Below are positions 9,730-62,611 of a stretch of DNA of 64,000 nt, one piece after another. Both the position numbers and the translations under genes were made by a program. Position 1 is the stretch's first letter. The number at the start of each line of letters is the position of its first letter. The notes beneath the pieces were generated by a model. That model was not told where the DNA came from, ran no database searches, and saw only the letters and a program-made list of their open reading frames with translations. Source of the stretch: an uncultured Bacilli bacterium (lineage in GTDB: Bacteria > Bacillota_I > Bacilli_A > RF39 > UBA660); the NCBI GenBank assembly GCA_934167825.1, contig CAKPLY010000002.1, forward strand, positions 105,900-169,899, read 5' to 3'.

Positions 9730-11211
9730 CTACGAAACTCTTGGTATTATTCCTATTAAATCAAGAGAGTTATTTATTACTATATTAATTGCTAATAGTA
9801 AATTTAAATTTTCTAATGTGTATGAATTATCTTCAGTTATTATATCATAATTTAGTAAATATTCATTAGTAAGACTTGATAATTCATATATATAATTTGC
9901 AATATTATATGGTTTATACTTCAATGTCGAAGTTTTTACTACTTCTCTAAAATCACATAATTTATTTAAGATATCATATGCAAGATCATTATTAATATTA
10001 TTATATTTTTCTACTTTAGATATTTTATTTGGATATGTAGATAATATTTCATATATTTTTTTATATGTGTTTTCTATAAAGTTATAATTGTTTATACTTG
10101 TATTACTTAATGTTATATTATATCTTATTTCATTTATATCTTCTTTATTATTATCTATATTATTTAAAATATCTATGCTTCTTATTTCTAATTTACTTAT
10201 ATCATACTCTAATAATTTTAATACAGGTCTTATAATACTAGCATATTCATTATTATAACATATATCTATTACTCCATCATAGTATTTATTAAATTTATCT
10301 ATATAATATGTAAGTAATATTAAGAAATTTGAATATGTACCATCATTATTTACTAGTACTTTGTCTTTAGTATCCTTTAATATTGTAGTTTTTAGATATA
10401 GTTTATCTTCATCAAAATATGTATATCCTGTCTTATTTAGTTTATTTAGTACACCATCTATTATTTCATTATTATTTATATTATCTATACATATGTAGTT
10501 ATTAAAGTTAATTCTGTAGGCATCTAGATGCTTTTTTAATTTATCTATGATTATTGAAGTGCTTTCTTTTTTAAAGTATTCTATATTTTCATATTGTTTT
10601 CTAGTGTTATATAGTTTATATATATATGATGCTATTTCATACGATAGAGTATTACTATTAGTATAATTATTTATACATAGTGTTTTATATTCTTCTTGAA
10701 CACTAAGTGCAATACTATCTATTTCATTTTGTGTATCTATTATATATAATTCTTTTGTTACTATACTGTTACTATTTTTTAATAGTCTTGCAAAATTATC
10801 TATATATATTATACTGTAAAAGTCTTCGTTAGATAAATTAATAATACTTGATAACTTAATACTTAGGTTTATTTTTTTGTTGTTACATATATTGTTTTTA
10901 CCATAGTTTATATTTTCTTCGATTATTTCTTTTAGTTCTTGTAATAGAAAGTGTTTATCTATTGTTAGTTTCATTATGCCAGGATATAATATTTCTATGT
11001 TTTCTATCATATCTGTTTTTATATTGTTTTTTATTATGTTTGCTATTTCTTCAGGTTTCTTATGAAGTGTTTTTACTAAAGTTATAGCAACATTTGTTTC
11101 GTATGTATAATTATTTATATCTTTTGTAATAGTAAAATCTTCGATAGATACATTTAATGATGTTTGTATAGAATCTTTTATTATTATTTTAAGTTTATCT
11201 TTTATACGCAT
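9730..11211 (-). CDS. Arginyl-tRNA synthetase-like protein lacking HIGH and KMSK signatures (possible pseudo-synthetase)
   Basis: N-terminal Add-1-like region (PEEIANII...ILYPGIMKL). C-terminal DALR-like region (YNIANYIYELSS...LLLAINIVINNSLDLIGI). Core blocks are YIIDTQNEIDSIALSV and VLVNNDGTYSNF. There is no HxGH and no KMSK. Sits after a ywiB-like gene, as argS does in Bacillus. Confidence 0.55.
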   Translation of the reverse strand: MRIKDKLKIIIKDSIQTSLNVSIEDFTITKDINNYTYETNVAITLVKTLHKKPEEIANIIKNNIKTDMIENIEILYPGIMKLTIDKHFLLQELKEIIEENINYGKNNICNNKKINLSIKLSSIINLSNEDFYSIIYIDNFARLLKNSNSIVTKELYIIDTQNEIDSIALSVQEEYKTLCINNYTNSNTLSYEIASYIYKLYNTRKQYENIEYFKKESTSIIIDKLKKHLDAYRINFNNYICIDNINNNEIIDGVLNKLNKTGYTYFDEDKLYLKTTILKDTKDKVLVNNDGTYSNFLILLTYYIDKFNKYYDGVIDICYNNEYASIIRPVLKLLEYDISKLEIRSIDILNNIDNNKEDINEIRYNITLSNTSINNYNFIENTYKKIYEILSTYPNKISKVEKYNNINNDLAYDILNKLCDFREVVKTSTLKYKPYNIANYIYELSSLTNEYLLNYDIITEDNSYTLENLNLLLAINIVINNSLDLIGIIPRVS

Positions 11212-13751: not shown

Positions 13752-15398
13752 TTATTTTAAAATTTTAATTGACATTTCATAGTCGTTAGCGTTGTCTTTT
13801 TCTTCAAGAGTTATTTTGTATCCACTGTTTTCTAATAATGGTATTAGGTTTCTTATCATATTTACTGCTGGTATAACGTCTACTTTTACCGCAGGTTGTA
13901 TGCTTTGTTCGTTATTAATTGGTCCTGTTGGTATATTAAATTCTGGAATTGGATTTGGTTGTGATACTGGCTCTTGTGGTGTTGGTTCTGGCATTACAGG
14001 ACTAGTTGGCATACTAAACTCTGGTAGCGGTGAAACTTGTGGCTGTTGTGCCATTTCTTGTTGAGGCGCTACTTCGGGTTGTGGCATTGATGGAACTGGT
14101 GGAATATTAAATTCTGGAACTGGATTTGGTTGTGGTGCTGGTTCTTGTGGTGTAAGTTCAGGCATTACAGGACTTGTTGGCATACTATATTCTGGAAGTG
14201 GTGAAACTTGTGGTTGTTGTACCATTTCTTGTTGAGGCACTACTTCTGGTTGTGGCATTGATGGAACTGGTGGAATATTAAATTCTGGAACTGGATTTGG
14301 TTGTGATACTGAATCTTGTGGTGTAAGTTCAGGCATTACAGGACTTGTTGGCATACTAAATTCAGGAAGCGGTGAAACTTGTGGTTGGTGTACCATTTCT
14401 TGTTGAGGTGCTACTTCGGGTTGTGACATTGATGGAACTGTTGTAGATATATTATTAGTATTATTTTCTACAGGAACTTCAAAATTTAGTGGTTGTTCTT
14501 CTAATGATGGGAAAAATGCAGAAGGTGAGGGTTCTACAACTTTATTACCTATAATTGCAGATGGCTCACTAGTTGCATACATTTCTTGTTTAGGTTGTTC
14601 CTTTAATAAATTGTTATATTGGTTAAAATTAAATTGGTTATTATTATCCATAGTTTTATTCTCCTTTTTATTCTTTTTTACTTCTTGTTCTTCTAGAAAA
14701 TCTATTTTATTTAATTCTTTTAATTTTACTTTATCTTGATTTTCTAACTCTTTATCTTTTAGTGATTCTTGTTCTTCTTCTTGTTTTATTAAATCATTAA
14801 AACTTACTTCTTTTTTATTTACTATTTCTTCAAGTGATTTTACTGTTAGTCTTTCTTTTAATATTCTTTCTAAAAGTAATGATTGTTCTTCTTTTGGTAC
14901 TTTTGTTAAAATTTTTGCGTGTCCTAAAGATATTTTTTTTCTTAATAGGGAGTCTTCTACTAAAGGGGTTAGTTTTAATAATTCTAGTTTGTTTTTTATA
15001 TCTTTTTCATTTGTATTTAGTTTACTAGATAATTTTTTTATTGTCATTTTATCTAATAATTTACTATATATTTTTGCTTCTTCTAGGGGAGTTAATGAAT
15101 TTTCATTTTCTAATAATGACAATATTATTGCATCTTCTTTTGATAAATCTAATACTACTGATGGTACATCTTTAATATATAATTTTTTTGCAACTCTATA
15201 CCTTTTTTCACCATCAATTAGTTCATAGTCATTATTATCTTTTCTTAGTGTTAATGGTTTTATAAATCCATATTTTTTTATAGAAAATGATAAGTTATCT
15301 AAGTCTTTTTTATCAATATATACTCTTGGTTGATATGAGTTTGATTTAATTTTATCTATGTTTATATATTTGATATTTATATATTCATTCATAATCAA
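13752..15398 (-). CDS. Divergent ParB/Noc-family protein with Pro/Gln-rich triple-repeat linker
   Basis: ParB N-domain (SYQPR...ELIDGEKRYRVAKK), HTH (...NKLELLKLTP...ISLGHAKIL), E/K-rich segment, 3 x 57-aa P/Q repeats, short C-terminal domain. Occupies the noc position next to rsmG. Confidence 0.8.
   Translation of the reverse strand: MIMNEYINIKYINIDKIKSNSYQPRVYIDKKDLDNLSFSIKKYGFIKPLTLRKDNNDYELIDGEKRYRVAKKLYIKDVPSVVLDLSKEDAIILSLLENENSLTPLEEAKIYSKLLDKMTIKKLSSKLNTNEKDIKNKLELLKLTPLVEDSLLRKKISLGHAKILTKVPKEEQSLLLERILKERLTVKSLEEIVNKKEVSFNDLIKQEEEQESLKDKELENQDKVKLKELNKIDFLEEQEVKKNKKENKTMDNNNQFNFNQYNNLLKEQPKQEMYATSEPSAIIGNKVVEPSPSAFFPSLEEQPLNFEVPVENNTNNISTTVPSMSQPEVAPQQEMVHQPQVSPLPEFSMPTSPVMPELTPQDSVSQPNPVPEFNIPPVPSMPQPEVVPQQEMVQQPQVSPLPEYSMPTSPVMPELTPQEPAPQPNPVPEFNIPPVPSMPQPEVAPQQEMAQQPQVSPLPEFSMPTSPVMPEPTPQEPVSQPNPIPEFNIPTGPINNEQSIQPAVKVDVIPAVNMIRNLIPLLENSGYKITLEEKDNANDYEMSIKILK
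13933..14445. repeat. Three tandem 171-bp (57-codon) in-frame repeats inside the ParB-like gene
   Basis: The unit starting atattaaattctggaa... recurs at 13933, 14104 and 14275 (period exactly 171 bp), with high identity by eye. Confidence 0.9.
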
Positions 15399-15529
15399 CC
15401 TCTTTTCTATTCTATATATATGATACTATAAAATTAATTCTTTTTCAAGAAATTAATAGTAAATATTTTAAAATATATGATAAATAGTAAAGATAGAAAA
15501 AAATCTTATGTTTGTTATTTTACATAAGA

Positions 15530-33055: not shown

Positions 33056-33073
33056 ATGTTCCACGTGGAACAT
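33056..33073. promoter_or_regulatory. parS: parS-type site 1
   Basis: Exact 18-mer. Perfect palindrome extends to 28 bp (33051-33078). Confidence 0.85.
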
Positions 33074-33311
33074 AAAATGTTATAATAATTTATGTTTGTG
33101 TTTTATATTTATAATGTTTAAAAGTTTCTTATCTATTTATATAATTTTATCCTGTTGATAAACGTAATATAATTAGTATTATTTTTAAATACATAATCTG
33201 TTGATAGAATAATTTTATTATTTATGATAGGTAAGTAATATATATTTATATAAATTATATGAAGTATTTTTTGATATTAATTACAATATTGAATATTTCT
33301 TTTATAAAATA

Positions 33312-33329
33312 ATGTTCCACGTGGAACAT
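33312..33329. promoter_or_regulatory. parS: parS-type site 2
   Basis: Exact 18-mer with no arm extension. Left boundary of duplication copy A. Confidence 0.85.
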
Positions 33330-33479
33330 AAACAATGGATGTTTATATACAAATATTAAAGCAGTATAATATTTATAGATTATATTTTTTAATAATTCTT
33401 ATAGTTTATTGCTTATTATTTTGTGTATAATAGTTTTATTTGAATACATTAATAATGATGTTTTTGCGTTTTTTATGTC

Positions 33480-33497
33480 ATGTTCCACGTGGAACAT
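33480..33497. promoter_or_regulatory. parS: parS-type site 3
   Basis: Exact 18-mer. Perfect palindrome extends to 38 bp (33470-33507). Confidence 0.85.
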
Positions 33498-33719
33498 GAC
33501 ATAAAAATAAATTTTAATTAAATGTATTTAAGTGATTTAAAAAAAAGAGTTATATTTATTTGTTTAAATTAATATTAATATCATTATTATAGAGCGTTAT
33601 TTTATAATAAATTATTATTATTTTTTTATAAATCGTTGTTTTGATATTATTTTATTAGTAACTGTTAAGAATCTTACTTACGAAAAAATTACATCATTTA
33701 ATTTTTATTTGTCATATTC

Positions 33720-33737
33720 ATGTTCCACGTGGAACAT
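33720..33737. promoter_or_regulatory. parS: parS-type site 4
   Basis: Exact 18-mer. Perfect palindrome extends to 30 bp (33714-33743). Confidence 0.85.
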
Positions 33738-33836
33738 GAATATAGATATATATATAATATTATTTTTAATTAATATTTATTTAATATATGTTTAATTATT
33801 ATTATTTTGTTGTATTTTTTGTATTGATGATTTTTT

Positions 33837-33854
33837 ATGTTCCACGTGGAACAT
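33837..33854. promoter_or_regulatory. parS: parS-type site 5
   Basis: Exact 18-mer. Perfect palindrome extends to 30 bp (33831-33860). Confidence 0.85.
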
Positions 33855-33973
33855 AAAAAAATACTTTAGTTAAGTTTGATTTTGTTAATAAATTTATTTA
33901 ACAAATTTATAACTTATATTTTTCATTAAATTGTTATTATATATTATTTATTATTACTTTTTTGTATATATAT

Positions 33974-33991
33974 ATGTTCCACGTGGAACAT
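33974..33991. promoter_or_regulatory. parS: parS-type site 6
   Basis: Exact 18-mer. Its right flank gacataaaaa equals the right arm of site 3. Confidence 0.85.
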
Positions 33992-34130
33992 GACATAAAA
34001 ATCTTTTGTATGTTAAAATGATTTTTATATTGATAAAATTGTTATTTATATAATATAGAGTACATATTTAGATTATTTTTTTAAGTTAAACTAAAATTTT
34101 TTTGTTGTATTATTTTATTAAATTTTATTT

Positions 34131-34148
34131 ATGTTCCACGTGGAACAT
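34131..34148. promoter_or_regulatory. parS: parS-type site 7
   Basis: Exact 18-mer. Perfect palindrome extends to 30 bp (34125-34154). Left boundary of duplication copy B. Confidence 0.85.
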
Positions 34149-34298
34149 AAATAATGGATGTTTATATACAAATATTAAAGCAGTATAATATTTATAGATT
34201 ATAATTTTTAATAATTCTTATAGTTTGTTGCTTATTATTTTGTGTATAATATTTTTATTTAAATATATTAATAATGATATTTTTATGTTTTTTATGTC

Positions 34299-34316
34299 AT
34301 GTTCCACGTGGAACAT
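34299..34316. promoter_or_regulatory. parS: parS-type site 8
   Basis: Exact 18-mer (22-bp palindrome, 34297-34318). Left flank equals the site 3 arm and right flank equals the site 4 arm, so it is a hybrid. Confidence 0.85.
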
Positions 34317-34432
34317 GAATATGAATATATATGATATTATTTTTAATTAGTATTTATTTAATATGTGTTCAATTATTATTATTTTTTTATATACTCAAAT
34401 CTGTTGTTATATATTTTTATTGGTGTTTTTCT

Positions 34433-34450
34433 ATGTTCCACGTGGAACAT
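34433..34450. promoter_or_regulatory. parS: parS-type site 9
   Basis: Exact 18-mer. Perfect palindrome extends to 32 bp (34426-34457). Confidence 0.85.
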
Positions 34451-34678
34451 AGAAAAAATACTTTAATTAAGTTTAATTTTGTTAATAAATTTATTTAACA
34501 AATTTATAACTTATATTTTTCGTTAAATTGTTATTATATATTATTTATCATTGCTTTTTTGTATATATATATTAAATATTAGTTATTACTGTGTTTGAGT
34601 ATATTGTATTGATTTAGAAAATACTTATTTAACTGTTTTGTAATAACGATTTAAAAAGATGTGCATATATTTTATTTC

Positions 34679-34696
34679 ATGTTCCACGTGGAACAT
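34679..34696. promoter_or_regulatory. parS: parS-type site 10
   Basis: Exact 18-mer. Perfect palindrome extends to 38 bp (34669-34706). Confidence 0.85.
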
Positions 34697-34843
34697 GAAA
34701 TAAAAATTTATATAAAATATTGATTATTTATAAAATATATTGTATTATTAATATGCAACATTAATGTTAGAACCAGGTCAGGAATGGAAATTAGCAGCCT
34801 TAATAACCTCTTAATGTGTGCATTTTTTTTATTTATAATTATT

Positions 34844-34861
34844 ATGTTCCACGTGGAACAT
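34844..34861. promoter_or_regulatory. parS: parS-type site 11
   Basis: Exact 18-mer, ending 18 nt before the tadA ATG. Confidence 0.85.
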
Positions 34862-52352: not shown

Positions 52353-53114
52353 GTGTATAGAATAGGGAATTTAGTTACTAGAAAGTCATATAATAATGAT
52401 ATTATATTCAAGATTGTTGATATAGTAGAAGATAATTATATATTACAAGGTTATTTTGTTAGACTATATGCTGATGCTAAAGAAGAAGATTTAAATTTAG
52501 TAAATGGTGATGTTACTAATGATTTTGAACCTGATATTAATGAATATAGAACTTTAGATAGAAATGAATATTTTTATTTACCTGGCAAAATTTTGCATTT
52601 GGATGGAGATAGGGATTATTTAAATAAGTGTATGGAATTTTATAAAAAAAATAAGATTAAAGCATTTGGTTTTTATATGAAAGAAGAGAATTTTGCAGAT
52701 AATATTGGTGATTTGTTAGATAAATATAATCCTGATATATTAGTTCTTACTGGTCATGATGCTTATTTTAGAAAGAAAAGAGGAAATCAGGGGTATAAGA
52801 ATACAAGTAGTTTTGTTAATGCTGTAAAAGAAGCAAGAAAGTATGAAAAATCGCAAGATAAACTTATTATTATATCTGGTGCATGTCAATCTAATTATGA
52901 AGAACTTATTACATCGGGATCTAATTTTGCTTCAAGTCCTAAAAAAGTTAATATTCATGCACTTGATCCTGCGATAGTTGCTACTATGGTTGCATTTTCT
53001 AATAAAAATAATGATATAGATTTAATAAAAATACTTAATAGTACTAAATATAAAAGTGATGGAATTGGAGGAATTATAACAAAAGGTACAATGTATGTTG
53101 GTTATCCAAGATAA
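52353..53114 (+). CDS. yabG: Sporulation-specific protease YabG
   Basis: ILHLDGD, PDILVLTGHDAY, IISGACQS. Synteny ksgA-yabG-veg. Confidence 0.85.
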   Translation: MYRIGNLVTRKSYNNDIIFKIVDIVEDNYILQGYFVRLYADAKEEDLNLVNGDVTNDFEPDINEYRTLDRNEYFYLPGKILHLDGDRDYLNKCMEFYKKNKIKAFGFYMKEENFADNIGDLLDKYNPDILVLTGHDAYFRKKRGNQGYKNTSSFVNAVKEARKYEKSQDKLIIISGACQSNYEELITSGSNFASSPKKVNIHALDPAIVATMVAFSNKNNDIDLIKILNSTKYKSDGIGGIITKGTMYVGYPR

Positions 53115-58118: not shown

Positions 58119-58943
58119 GTGAATTTAGTGGGAAAAATTATTGCAGTAGTAAATCAAAAAGGTGGCGTTGGAAAAACTACCACAAGTATTAATTTATCTG
58201 CTTCTTTAGGAGTTCTTAAAAAAAAGGTTTTGCTTGTTGATTTGGACCCTCAAGGAAATGCAACAACAGGAGTAGGGATAGACAAGGGTGATATAGAAAG
58301 TAGTGTATATGAAGTATTAGTTATGAAAAGTTCAATAGAGGATGCTATTATTAAGACTAAAAGTAAGAATTTGAGTTTACTTCCAGCATATTTAAATTTA
58401 GCAGGAGTAGAAATGGAACTTATTGAACTAGAAAGAAAATTCAAGGATGAGGGAAAAAACTTTAATCGTGTTGTAAGACTAAAAGAAGAATTATGTAAGG
58501 TTAAAGATAATTATGATTATATTATTATAGATTGTCCACCATCTTTGGGTATTTTAACTACTAATGCTTTGGCGGCAGCAGATTCAGTGCTCATTCCTGT
58601 TCAATGTGAATATTTTGCACTAGAAGGAATTATGCAACTTATAAATACTGTTATGCTTGCACAAAAGAAAGTAAATCCTAAACTTGATATAGAAGGTGTA
58701 CTTCTTACTATGCTTACTTCAAATACTAATTTGGGACTTGAAGTAGTTGAAAGTATTAAGGGATTTTTTAAAGAAAGAGTATATAATACTATTATACCAA
58801 GATTAATTAGACTTGCAGAAGCTCCATCACATGGTAAACCAATTATAGAATATGAACCAAGAAGTAGGGGAACACTTGCATATCTAAATTTAGCAAAGGA
58901 GGTTATAGAAAGAAATGGAACAGAAGAAGAAAGCGTTGGGTAG
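58119..58943 (+). CDS. soj: Chromosome partitioning ATPase ParA/Soj
   Basis: Deviant Walker A NQKGGVGKTT, DLDPQGN, IIDCPPSLG. Confidence 0.95.
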   Translation: MNLVGKIIAVVNQKGGVGKTTTSINLSASLGVLKKKVLLVDLDPQGNATTGVGIDKGDIESSVYEVLVMKSSIEDAIIKTKSKNLSLLPAYLNLAGVEMELIELERKFKDEGKNFNRVVRLKEELCKVKDNYDYIIIDCPPSLGILTTNALAAADSVLIPVQCEYFALEGIMQLINTVMLAQKKVNPKLDIEGVLLTMLTSNTNLGLEVVESIKGFFKERVYNTIIPRLIRLAEAPSHGKPIIEYEPRSRGTLAYLNLAKEVIERNGTEEESVG

Positions 58944-59796
58944 AGGTTTAGAACAACTATTTAGTAGTGAAGTATTGGATTTTGACCAATTTGAAACTAA
59001 TATTATGGAAAATGTAAAAGATAATGACGTTAGAGAGTTGCCAATTACTGATATTAGACCTAATCCATATCAACCAAGAAAGAGTTTTAATGAAGAAGCA
59101 TTAAATGAACTTGCTGAGTCAATTAAAAATTATGGTGTTTTTCAGCCTATTATTGTTAAAAAAAGTATTAAAGGATATGATTTAATTGCAGGAGAAAGAA
59201 GACTTAGGGCATCAAAAATAGCAGGACTTGCAACAATACCTGCGATTATTAAAGATTTTTCAGATGAACAAATGAGAGAAATAGCACTTTTGGAAAACTT
59301 ACAAAGAGAGAATTTAACTCCAATAGAACTTGCTTGGGCATATAAAGGCATTATTGATACTTTACATATTAGACAAGAAGATTTAGCAGACAAAATAGGT
59401 AAGAGTAGGAGTCATGTTACTAATACACTTGGACTTTTAAGATTACCTGAAGAAATACAAAATCAAATACTTGAAAATAAAATTTCTATGGGTCATGCAA
59501 AAATTTTATCTAAAATTGATGATGACTATAAAGTAAAAGAATTTGCTGACAAAATAATTAATAATAATATTAGCGTTAGAGAACTTGAAGAGAAAGTACA
59601 AGATACTGATGTTAAAAAGAAAGTTCCTATAAATAGAAAGATTAAAGTTAGCGACTATGATTATATAGAAAGAGAACTTAGAGATATTTTGGATACTAAG
59701 GTTATTGTTAAGGACAAGAAACTAGAAATTTGTTTTGAAAATGGTAATGATTTAGATAGAATACTAGAAATAATGAACATAAAAATTGAAAAATAG
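58915..59796 (+). CDS. spo0J: Chromosome partitioning protein ParB/Spo0J (canonical)
   Basis: LGRGLEQL, PNPYQPR, GERRLRA arginine patch, ENLQRENLTPIE, HTH KSRSHVTNTLGLLRLP. Confidence 0.95.
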   Translation: MEQKKKALGRGLEQLFSSEVLDFDQFETNIMENVKDNDVRELPITDIRPNPYQPRKSFNEEALNELAESIKNYGVFQPIIVKKSIKGYDLIAGERRLRASKIAGLATIPAIIKDFSDEQMREIALLENLQRENLTPIELAWAYKGIIDTLHIRQEDLADKIGKSRSHVTNTLGLLRLPEEIQNQILENKISMGHAKILSKIDDDYKVKEFADKIINNNISVRELEEKVQDTDVKKKVPINRKIKVSDYDYIERELRDILDTKVIVKDKKLEICFENGNDLDRILEIMNIKIEK

Positions 59797-61960: not shown

Positions 61961-62611
61961 TTAGTATTTTATTTTGGGTACAACTTTCCATTTGCCTTGT
62001 TTTAAATATGCATTATTATTTTTTATAATAGTAGTAATATTTCTTGTCGAATGTCTTTCTTTATATAACTCAAATATTTCTTTAACAACTTTGGTTTCAA
62101 TAGGTTCAATTTCTAAATGATCTGTTTCTTTGTTTCTTGTATATCCATATGGTGCTTTACTAGGATGGATATGTTACATAGCCATTTCTTCCAAAGCTCT
62201 TTTTGTTCTTGCTCCAATTTCTTTTCTTTCTCTTTGACCAAACACTAAATTCATTCCATAAATCATTTCACCATTAGCAGTACTTACATCAAATGGTTCA
62301 AGTATTAGTTCTAATTTAACATCATGTTCTTCTAAATAATTAAGTAGCCAAAATCCATCATAATTACTTCTTGTAAGTCTATCTACTTTAATAGCAACTA
62401 ATTTATCAATTTTCTTTGATTTAATGTCTTTTAATAATCTTTGCATTTCTGGTCTCATTAAATCTTTTCCTGAATGACCGGCATCATTATAAACATCAAT
62501 AATGTCATAGTTTTTCTTTTCACAATATTCTTTAATCATTCTAAGTTGTGAATCAATAGAATATCCATTATCTTTTTGGTCGTCAATTGAAATTCTAACA
62601 TAACTCCACAT
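61961..62611 (-). pseudogene. Large serine recombinase remnant: in-frame TAA at 62174-62176, truncated after ~70 further codons
   Basis: N-terminal resolvase domain YVRISIDDQ...VDRLTR... After the stop the same frame continues HIHPSKAPYGYTRN...VKEIFELY (recombinase domain), then ends at 61961. Confidence 0.8.

Follow-up and report, generated by a model that had tools for sequence, protein, structure and literature searches.

What kind of protein does a gene in the noc position encode when its linker is long and repetitive and its ParB-type nucleotide pocket is altered? The gene in question lies in an uncultured bacterium, on a 64,000-nucleotide stretch of contig CAKPLY010000002.1 (GenBank assembly GCA_934167825.1, positions 105,900 to 169,899) that was analysed as a whole and is referred to here as the window. 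It stands next to rsmG, and its coding sequence occupies 13752..15392 on the reverse strand (-); this and all following positions are those of the window, and every feature of the gene given below is likewise on (-). We conclude that the gene belongs to the Noc lineage, and we assign a probability of roughly 0.6 to the reading that it is a derived Noc-subfamily paralogue at the noc locus, in which DNA-binding heads would be held on long tethers, the linker would serve in docking, internal initiation would occur, and the nucleotide pocket and DNA specificity would be retuned.

The 548-aa open reading frame (ORF) of the preliminary description exists, at 13752..15398, when it is read from TTG 15398. 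The DNA around the start reads AAGAGG-TTGATT-ATG-AAT-GAA, and translation most probably begins at ATG 15392, since the ribosome-binding site AAGAGG (15399..15404; duplex free energy (dG) with the anti-Shine-Dalgarno (anti-SD) sequence -7.0) sits 6 nt 5′ of it and all homologues open with MNEY. The favoured product is 546 aa, followed by a stop codon, and is exactly the public protein P0046, found on five contigs in NCBI and ENA. There is no in-frame start codon further upstream, and the ORF is not extendable in the 5′ direction.

Synteny, tree, fold and the C-terminal domain together place the gene in the Noc lineage: it is not a second Spo0J. The window runs yidC, jag, mnmE, mnmG, rsmG and the Noc-lineage gene, followed by a convergent PBP1A gene, and rsmG precedes the gene, directly or via one small unannotated ORF, in all relatives with an identifiable upstream gene; the noc position that had been assigned to it is thus borne out. 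L023 and L055 show the order rsmG, Noc-lineage gene, parA, parB, DUF951, ychF, which is the noc-soj-spo0J arrangement of Bacillus. The window's own soj (ParA, 58119..58943) and spo0J (ParB with an LGRGL motif, 58915..59796), both on (+), lie about 43 kb from the noc-position gene, beyond dnaA/dnaN/gyrBA, and in L023 and L055 they follow the Noc-like gene directly. The P0012 lineage carries a 275-aa ORF without a Pfam match between rsmG and the long Noc-like gene (L020, 7046..7873; L021/L022, 4409..5236).

In a tree of the ParB_N plus helix-turn-helix (HTH) region the family falls beside Geobacillus Noc and is separated from Spo0J/ParB (a neighbour-joining distance tree without bootstrap, with ParBs from the window, L023, L055 and H. 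pylori). The window protein forms a long branch beside P0004-P0010, its sister clade. Over the same region relatives are 50-59% identical to Geobacillus Noc, compared with 38-52% to the ParBs in the tree. The best PDB sequence matches are Noc 7ng0/7nfu (E ~3e-30), which rank above the ParB/Spo0J entries, and a Foldseek search of the PDB with the predicted structure returned Geobacillus thermoleovorans Noc 7nfu first (E 2.5e-18), then B. subtilis ParB-CDP, with ParB 6sdk at E 5e-17. The earlier proposal of a second ParB/Noc-family protein in this genome region therefore stands: it clusters with Geobacillus Noc, and the canonical Spo0J is separate.

The whole-protein score on the Noc model TIGR04285, 166.1 bits against a curated cutoff of 315, does not discriminate, because the window's Spo0J itself scores 235. 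The C-terminal domain does, and by its sequence it is Noc-type rather than Spo0J-type. Of only two NCBIfam matches listed for the last 48 aa, the better is to TIGR04285, over positions 208-255 (E 2e-4), and the other is weak (E 0.011) and concerns a metalloprotease model that is unrelated. In four distant relatives the C-terminus likewise matches TIGR04285 alone, at positions 208-255. The TIGR04285 match of Spo0J ends at position 210, and BLASTP of the C-terminus against the window Spo0J gave no alignment.

Profile searches and structure prediction, which the preliminary description had proposed, place the protein in the ParB/Noc family and not in an unrelated one, and Pfam and AlphaFold2 reproduce its order of ParB N-domain, HTH and E/K-rich segment. 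The ParB_N domain, of the cytidine triphosphatase (CTPase) fold, spans residues 8-98 (15099..15371; PF02195, E 1e-21, 77.2 bits against a cutoff of 26.3; Foldseek top match Noc 7nfu), and the HTH_ParB DNA-binding domain residues 101-196 (14805..15092; PF17762, E 1.7e-19, 70.3 bits against 22.6). A Pfam scan of the protein found no domain besides these two, and TIGR00180 scores 103.5 against its cutoff of 58.45. An AlphaFold2 model built on 123 sequences has a predicted local distance difference test (pLDDT) score of about 90 over residues 4-195 and a helix at residues 184-225, so that the E/K-rich segment (residues 197-247, 14652..14804) begins as a predicted long helix that runs to about residue 225. 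Residues 231-500 are mostly below pLDDT 50, with 10-residue block means of 41-59; some 280 residues of disorder are thus predicted between the charged helix and the C-terminal domain. That last domain, thought earlier to resemble the ParB dimerisation end, is real and folded (residues 505-546, 13755..13880; pLDDT >90; helix-helix-strand-strand), but it is of the Noc type, with nothing alignable to the window Spo0J.

Within the linker, residues 248-307 (MDNNNQFNFNQYNNLLKEQ...FFPSLEEQPLNFEVP, 14472..14651) form a conserved motif block that is predicted to be disordered (pLDDT <50). Across the window protein and P0001-P0010 it has 28 invariant positions (M...NFNQYN.LLKE...M...P..I...P...FFPSLEEQPLN..VP). 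Identity between the window protein and the sister clade is 67% in the block and 65% in the C-terminal domain, compared with 47% in ParB_N and 48% in the HTH. Since the block exceeds the ParB domains in conservation, the linker is no passive spacer. An exhaustive profile search, run over 1.84 billion representative proteins, recovered the block in its own family alone (eight true hits), and the 73-aa central block on its own gave no matches in a word-index homology search. No member of the FFPSLEE clade turned up among genomes sampled at one per GTDB species, and a scan of JGI metagenomes yielded a single strain variant only. The family is a small, metagenome-only subfamily whose linker has grown to a disordered region of 100-450 aa.

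Known motifs were also compared with the linker. FFPSLEE was set beside SRFFGLGE of the Noc membrane helix in a by-eye comparison only; AlphaFold2 predicts no helix there, and we do not claim a relocated membrane helix. The likeness of the block or repeats to a beta-clamp-binding motif, an FtsZ C-terminal peptide or an SSB tail is superficial, with key positions variable or the order reversed, and these identities were rejected.

The Met that opens the block, Met248, is kept family-wide as M[DN]N and is a putative internal start. An SD-like sequence precedes it by 5-9 nt in all lineages with readable DNA: AGGAG at a spacing of 9 to ATG in the window, GGAGG at 8 in L048, L049 and L051 and at 5 in L050, GAGGAGG at 5 in L023, AAGGAA at 9 in both L020 and L054, and AGAGGG at 9 in L052. 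The residues encoded at this site differ by lineage (KKENKT, MEDEK, SEVEE, TEEN, MEEKN, NEEEN and others), and the GGAG is composed of rare G-ending codons (TCG-GAG, ACG-GAG, AAG-GAG); GAG makes up 8% of Glu codons in these genes. In the window, AGGAG (14661..14665) lies 9 nt 5′ of ATG 14651 and is the strongest anti-SD match of the gene, with a dG of -8.9 compared with -7.0 at the gene's own start and a median of -7.35 over 22 gene starts. By duplex energy with the 16S 3′ end, the internal SD outranks every other site of the gene in 8 of 11 lineages, and in 9 of 11 it precedes the sole ATG with a site that strong. Synonymous-codon resampling with the amino acids fixed, over the nine lineages with an aligned Met, gave a combined p of ~6e-7, further evidence that the site is under selection. 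We consider it an even bet, on this pattern of conservation, that an isoform of about 299 aa, comprising block, repeats and C-terminal domain, is also made.

The N-terminal half shows a different history. Box II (P-motif 2) reads GEKRYR (residues 61-66, 15195..15212), in which the first Arg of GERR is Lys, and Box III (P-motif 3) is reduced to ENENS (residues 95-99, 15096..15110), with a two-residue deletion and Glu for the Arg of ENLQR. The canonical Spo0J of the window has GERRLRAS and ENLQRENL. In the numbering of Caulobacter crescentus ParB, K63 is the R103 equivalent, and the R139 equivalent is lost, E97 standing there after the deletion. In that protein R60A, R103A, R104A, N136A, R139A, S74A and G79S lose cytidine triphosphate (CTP) binding, and Q58A and E135A bind CTP without hydrolysing it (PMC8367383). 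The nucleotide-contacting residues Q21, R23, S37, G42, E62, R64, E95 and N96 are kept, together with P22 of the Q-P-R motif. The pocket changes are specific to the window lineage, because the sister clade has GERRYK and ENMQKQ and distant members have GERR and EN[ILV]QR.

The DNA-recognition segment is altered as well: it reads NEKDIKNKLELLKL (residues 128-141, 14970..15011) where Spo0J has SRSHVTNTLGLLRL. Aligned to Noc 7nfu/7ng0, it contains the specificity residues E129, K135 and K140, and the fourth, G157, lies beyond it. The corresponding tetrads are R173-T179-A184-G201 in ParB and Q-K-K-R in Noc (Jalal et al. 2020, PMC7383237); R173 is invariant among parS binders, Q173 recognises adenine 1 and R201 cytosine 6, and K at 179 or 184 is permissive (PMC7383237). 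The window protein has E-K-K-G, which agrees with Noc at 179 and 184, with ParB at 201 and with neither at 173; the sister clade has [Q/K/R/I]-K-[T/K/N]-[G/S] and wider relatives Q-K-[N/S/A]-R. All the substitutions on which the preliminary description had built its case, in both boxes and in the HTH, including a Noc-like K at position 179 and E for the Arg of KSRSH at 173, recur in these alignments. Its verdict of an altered CTP pocket holds for the R103 and R139 equivalents, which are not canonical, and needs the qualification that most contact residues are retained.

Within P0004-P0010 the identities are 74% for ParB_N, 62% for the HTH, 74% for the central block and 65% for the C-terminal domain. 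Set against the window-to-sister values above, they indicate that the accelerated change of the CTPase and HTH half is restricted to the window lineage. The long linker belongs to the family as a whole, the CTP-pocket and HTH changes to the window lineage. The altered pocket and tetrad and the faster evolution of the N-terminal half make a weakened or retuned CTP switch probable, together with a shifted DNA target.

The same figures could mean that the N-terminal half is decaying: selection would then act mainly on the C-terminal part, and the ParB and HTH domains would be a degenerating or purely structural attachment with neither specific DNA binding nor nucleotide switching. The low identity of that half beside a block and C-terminal domain at 65-67%, the loss of the R139 equivalent, the Lys at R63 with a further R66I in the close relative P0002, and an E at the 173 equivalent, a position variable in the sister clade, would all fit such decay, and the internal SD and ATG would allow the C-terminal part to be made alone. 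We nevertheless find it unlikely: the ORF is intact, the N-terminal half is nearly unchanged among public variants of the species, Q21, R23, S37, G42, E62, R64, N96 and the HTH residue H158 are retained, and AlphaFold2 models the half with high confidence.

A second alternative is a conventional Noc as in B. subtilis, where CTP clamping at Noc-binding sites (NBS) frees an amphipathic helix that fastens DNA to the membrane and the linker is a mere spacer. Position, C-terminal domain, fold and tree placement would all suit it, as would the Noc-type Q-K-x-R tetrad of the wider relatives. Residues 1-26 of G. thermoleovorans Noc comprise the amphipathic helix alpha1 and alpha2, and B. subtilis Noc without its 10-residue membrane-targeting sequence loses both membrane binding and function (PMC8429893). 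The window protein has just 7 residues ahead of ParB_N, in an ORF that does not extend, and its alignment to Noc 7nfu sets query residue 8 against Noc residue 27 at the start; neither the Noc membrane-targeting helix nor the ParA-binding motif LG[RK]GL was found in its sequence. Retrieval with an N-terminal profile shows that the missing peptide is common to about 160 relatives, in which QPR lies at offset 18-22 (two of them are labelled by source as ‘Bacilli bacterium’ and ‘Clostridium sp. CAG:433’). The protein also falls short of the TIGR04285 cutoff (166 compared with 315), its tetrad is E-K-K-G, and its linker block, more conserved than the ParB domains, does not behave as a passive spacer. 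No NBS (ATTTCCCGGGAAAT, up to 2 mismatches) occurs in the 64-kb window, which is uninformative at the NBS density of B. subtilis. That density is one per roughly 60 kb. Taken together, these points make a conventional Noc improbable.

A second partition ParB, which would serve the parS array or another centromere jointly with the window's ParA, is more improbable still. It would account for ParB_N and HTH_ParB and for the ParB-like G at the 201 equivalent, and eleven perfect parS sites lie 18 kb away. The protein, however, has no LG[RK]GL motif or N-terminal peptide, unlike the window Spo0J (LGRGL), and no parA adjoins its gene; it carries E where parS binders have the invariant R173 (PMC7383237), it groups with Noc, and it ends in a Noc-type C-terminal domain. 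When up to 2 mismatches to parS were allowed and the hybrid TATTNCACGTGNAATA was included, the window still yielded just the 11 perfect sites. The array itself is plasmid-centromere-like, yet lies in the origin region of the chromosome: the eleven copies of TGTTCCACGTGGAACA fall within about 1.8 kb (33057..34860 (+)), mostly non-coding, downstream of gyrA, where 0.1 would be expected by chance. Every copy extends to at least ATGTTCCACGTGGAACAT, often to longer palindromes, at spacings of 117-256 bp, and sub-blocks are duplicated (188 nt at 95% and 120 nt at 96% identity). A small signal recognition particle RNA (Rfam RF00169, 61 bits; 34747..34832 (+)), the sole Rfam match in the window at gathering threshold, lies between the tenth and the eleventh copy.

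The remainder of the linker is dominated by three tandem 171-bp (57-aa) P/Q-rich repeats (residues 320-490, 13923..14435), each with PEF[SN][MI]P motifs. Tandem Repeats Finder reports a period of 171, 3.0 copies, 91% matches and no indels over 13925..14440; the in-frame units are 14265-14435 (residues 320-376), 14094-14264 (377-433) and 13923-14093 (434-490). Period and count agree with the preliminary description, whose ‘near-identical’ copies are about 90% alike and whose starts (13933, 14104 and 14275) are in another register. Unit pairs are 88-93% identical in nucleotides, with 3-9 synonymous and 8-9 non-synonymous codon differences per pair. Copy number varies within the same 90% cluster, where members have either three, with substitutions that differ (546, 554 and 556 aa), or two (497, 499 and 487 aa), and L019, a syntenic two-copy relative, has the same neighbour genes; the P/Q-rich tether is thus repeat-expandable, as had been proposed. 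An artefact of assembly or annotation, in the repeats or in the long ORF itself, is a negligible prospect: the fragments P0051 and P0053 begin inside the repeats, which indicates that short-read assemblies break there, but such breaks do not create an array, the units differ at 7-12% of nucleotides with synonymous sites included, the identical 546-aa protein stands on 5 contigs from NCBI and ENA, other strains have 3 differently substituted copies or 2, and other lineages own independent in-frame arrays.

The arrays of distant relatives are unrelated to that of the window protein (that of P0005, for instance, consists of five units of about 41 aa), and the otherwise dissimilar repeats have a P-x-F-x-[IVM]-P core in common: PEFNIP/PEFSMP in the window protein, PQFEVP in P0005, P0006 and P0008, PTFEVP in P0009, PDFNIP in P0016 and PEFRMP in P0020. 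The motif is far commoner than in shuffled linkers, a comparison in which copies within one protein are non-independent. We infer from this recurrence, and from the invariance of the block, that both are short linear docking motifs.

The derived Noc-subfamily reading can be put as a mechanism. The protein would be a C-terminally dimerised DNA binder with two DNA-binding heads on very long flexible tethers. Its invariant block and repeated PxFx[IVM]P motifs would dock a partner, a membrane or division-machinery component, and this docking would serve as the system's output in place of the absent amphipathic helix. The conserved SD and the ATG at Met248 would direct internal initiation, giving the isoform of about 299 aa without DNA-binding domains, which could pair with itself or with the full-length protein and in this way adjust valency. 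In the window lineage the R-to-K change in GERR and the lost ENLQR arginine point to CTP switching that is probably weakened or retuned, and E-K-K-G to a DNA target that would be neither canonical parS nor canonical NBS. The combined proposal that one ORF gives two proteins, with block and repeats replacing the membrane helix and the short isoform tuning the link by heterodimerisation or competition, is offered tentatively, as somewhat likelier to be wrong than right.

Several points weigh against this reading. The combined p from resampling at the internal SD overstates independence, the lineages being related and the SD lying within a purine-rich E/K segment; the Met of the distant lineages L053 and L055 was picked by eye. 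An internal AGGAG with an in-frame ATG is not unique within the window: parA contains an AGGAG with an in-frame ATG 5 nt on (58403, +), a control that shows such pairs to arise by chance. P0174-P0176, which begin at the internal Met, were rejected as independent support: they are from short contigs, one is a substring of P0010, and they may be truncation artefacts. The block is confined to one small family, so no partner can be inferred by association, and AlphaFold2 shows no docking of the block on the folded domains. The Lys that replaces Arg in GERR is a conservative substitution, and CTP binding may survive it. The searches of the window gave no candidate target besides parS: in addition to the NBS and parS searches, an unbiased scan for GC-containing palindromes of 12-16 bp showed parS alone to recur.

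The host is a 25%-GC, uncultured, spore-former-like Bacilli-type bacterium that contains RNAP delta. A homologue of the sporulation peptidase YabG, encoded at 52353..53114 (+) and scoring exactly at the model cutoff, suggests that the host is or descends from an endospore former despite its GC content and reduced-looking genome. Elsewhere in the window, a 493-aa ArgS-like ORF (9730..11211 (-); 544 aa in L020) reaches only 87 bits on arginine-tRNA ligase models, whose cutoff is 262, and also has a match to the NrtL model (anticodon-binding, ArgS-related); it may represent an ArgS paralogue that has diverged or is non-catalytic. Near the window end, the similarity of a 145-aa ORF (62174..62611 (-)) to large serine recombinases (CcrB/CcrC-like) is confined to their N-terminal catalytic domain; the ORF probably represents a recombinase cut short or the margin of a mobile element.

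Among known systems the closest is Noc (YyaA) of B. subtilis and G. thermoleovorans (TIGR04285; 7NFU, 7NG0, 7OL9, 6Y93). Like it, the gene is a ParB paralogue directly downstream of rsmG (gidB), upstream of soj-spo0J in some relatives, and the product has a CTPase fold and HTH for which Noc is the best sequence and fold match, a Noc-type C-terminal domain, no ParA-binding motif and the K179/K184 pair. Unlike Noc, the window protein lacks the N-terminal amphipathic membrane-targeting helix and alpha2, has between HTH and C-terminal domain a linker of about 300 aa with an invariant block and P/Q-rich repeats, carries E-K-K-G for Q-K-K-R, GEKR for GERR and EN--E for ENLQR, scores below the TIGR04285 cutoff, and has a probable internal translation start. 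The linker of B. subtilis Noc is about 40 aa. Noc is the textbook CTP switch coupling DNA binding to membrane binding, for which the N-terminal amphipathic helix is essential, and here a whole Noc-lineage clade from uncultured low-GC Bacilli is without that helix. If the clade still performs nucleoid occlusion, a different output is needed, and the known range of ParB-family switch mechanisms would be wider. A 2025 survey of the ParB-CTPase fold treats the architecture of Noc as canonical and remarks that orphan ParBs often diverge in Box III (PMC12704722).

With ParB/Spo0J (TIGR00180; 6SDK, 1VZ0, 4UMK) the protein shares the domain order of CTPase fold, HTH, linker and C-terminal dimerisation domain, as well as G201, Q-P-R, the S/G of the C-motif and the GE-R residues. 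It differs in having no LG[RK]GL and no neighbouring parA, in the R173-to-E change, in falling outside the ParB clade, and in a C-terminal domain unrelated in sequence to that of the window Spo0J. With GEKR, no ENLQR arginine and an unprecedented E-K-K-G, it is a natural experiment in which the rules of CTP binding and of discrimination between parS and NBS could be tested.

Long P/Q-rich flexible tethers that vary in length between species also occur in the division apparatus, in the linkers of ZipA and FtsK and the C-terminal linker of FtsZ. There too a low-complexity linker joins a localisation or anchoring module to an interaction module; unlike those linkers, to which it has no homology, the present tether lies inside a DNA-binding ParB-family dimer and bears PxFx[IVM]P motifs. 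The putative short isoform has its counterparts in internal-initiation pairs such as CheA-L/CheA-S, IF2 alpha/beta, ClpB 93/79, the B. subtilis aspartokinase II alpha/beta subunits and SafA/C30. As in those pairs, an SD and ATG in a long ORF would give a C-terminal isoform sharing the oligomerisation domain, a proposal made here from sequence conservation alone. A literature search for a long-linker Noc or for internal initiation in ParB/Noc found none, and the two-isoform design suggested by the conserved internal ribosome-binding site has, to our knowledge, not been reported for ParB/Noc. If the docking and two-isoform reading is true, it would be an undescribed way to build and regulate a nucleoid-occlusion-type system.

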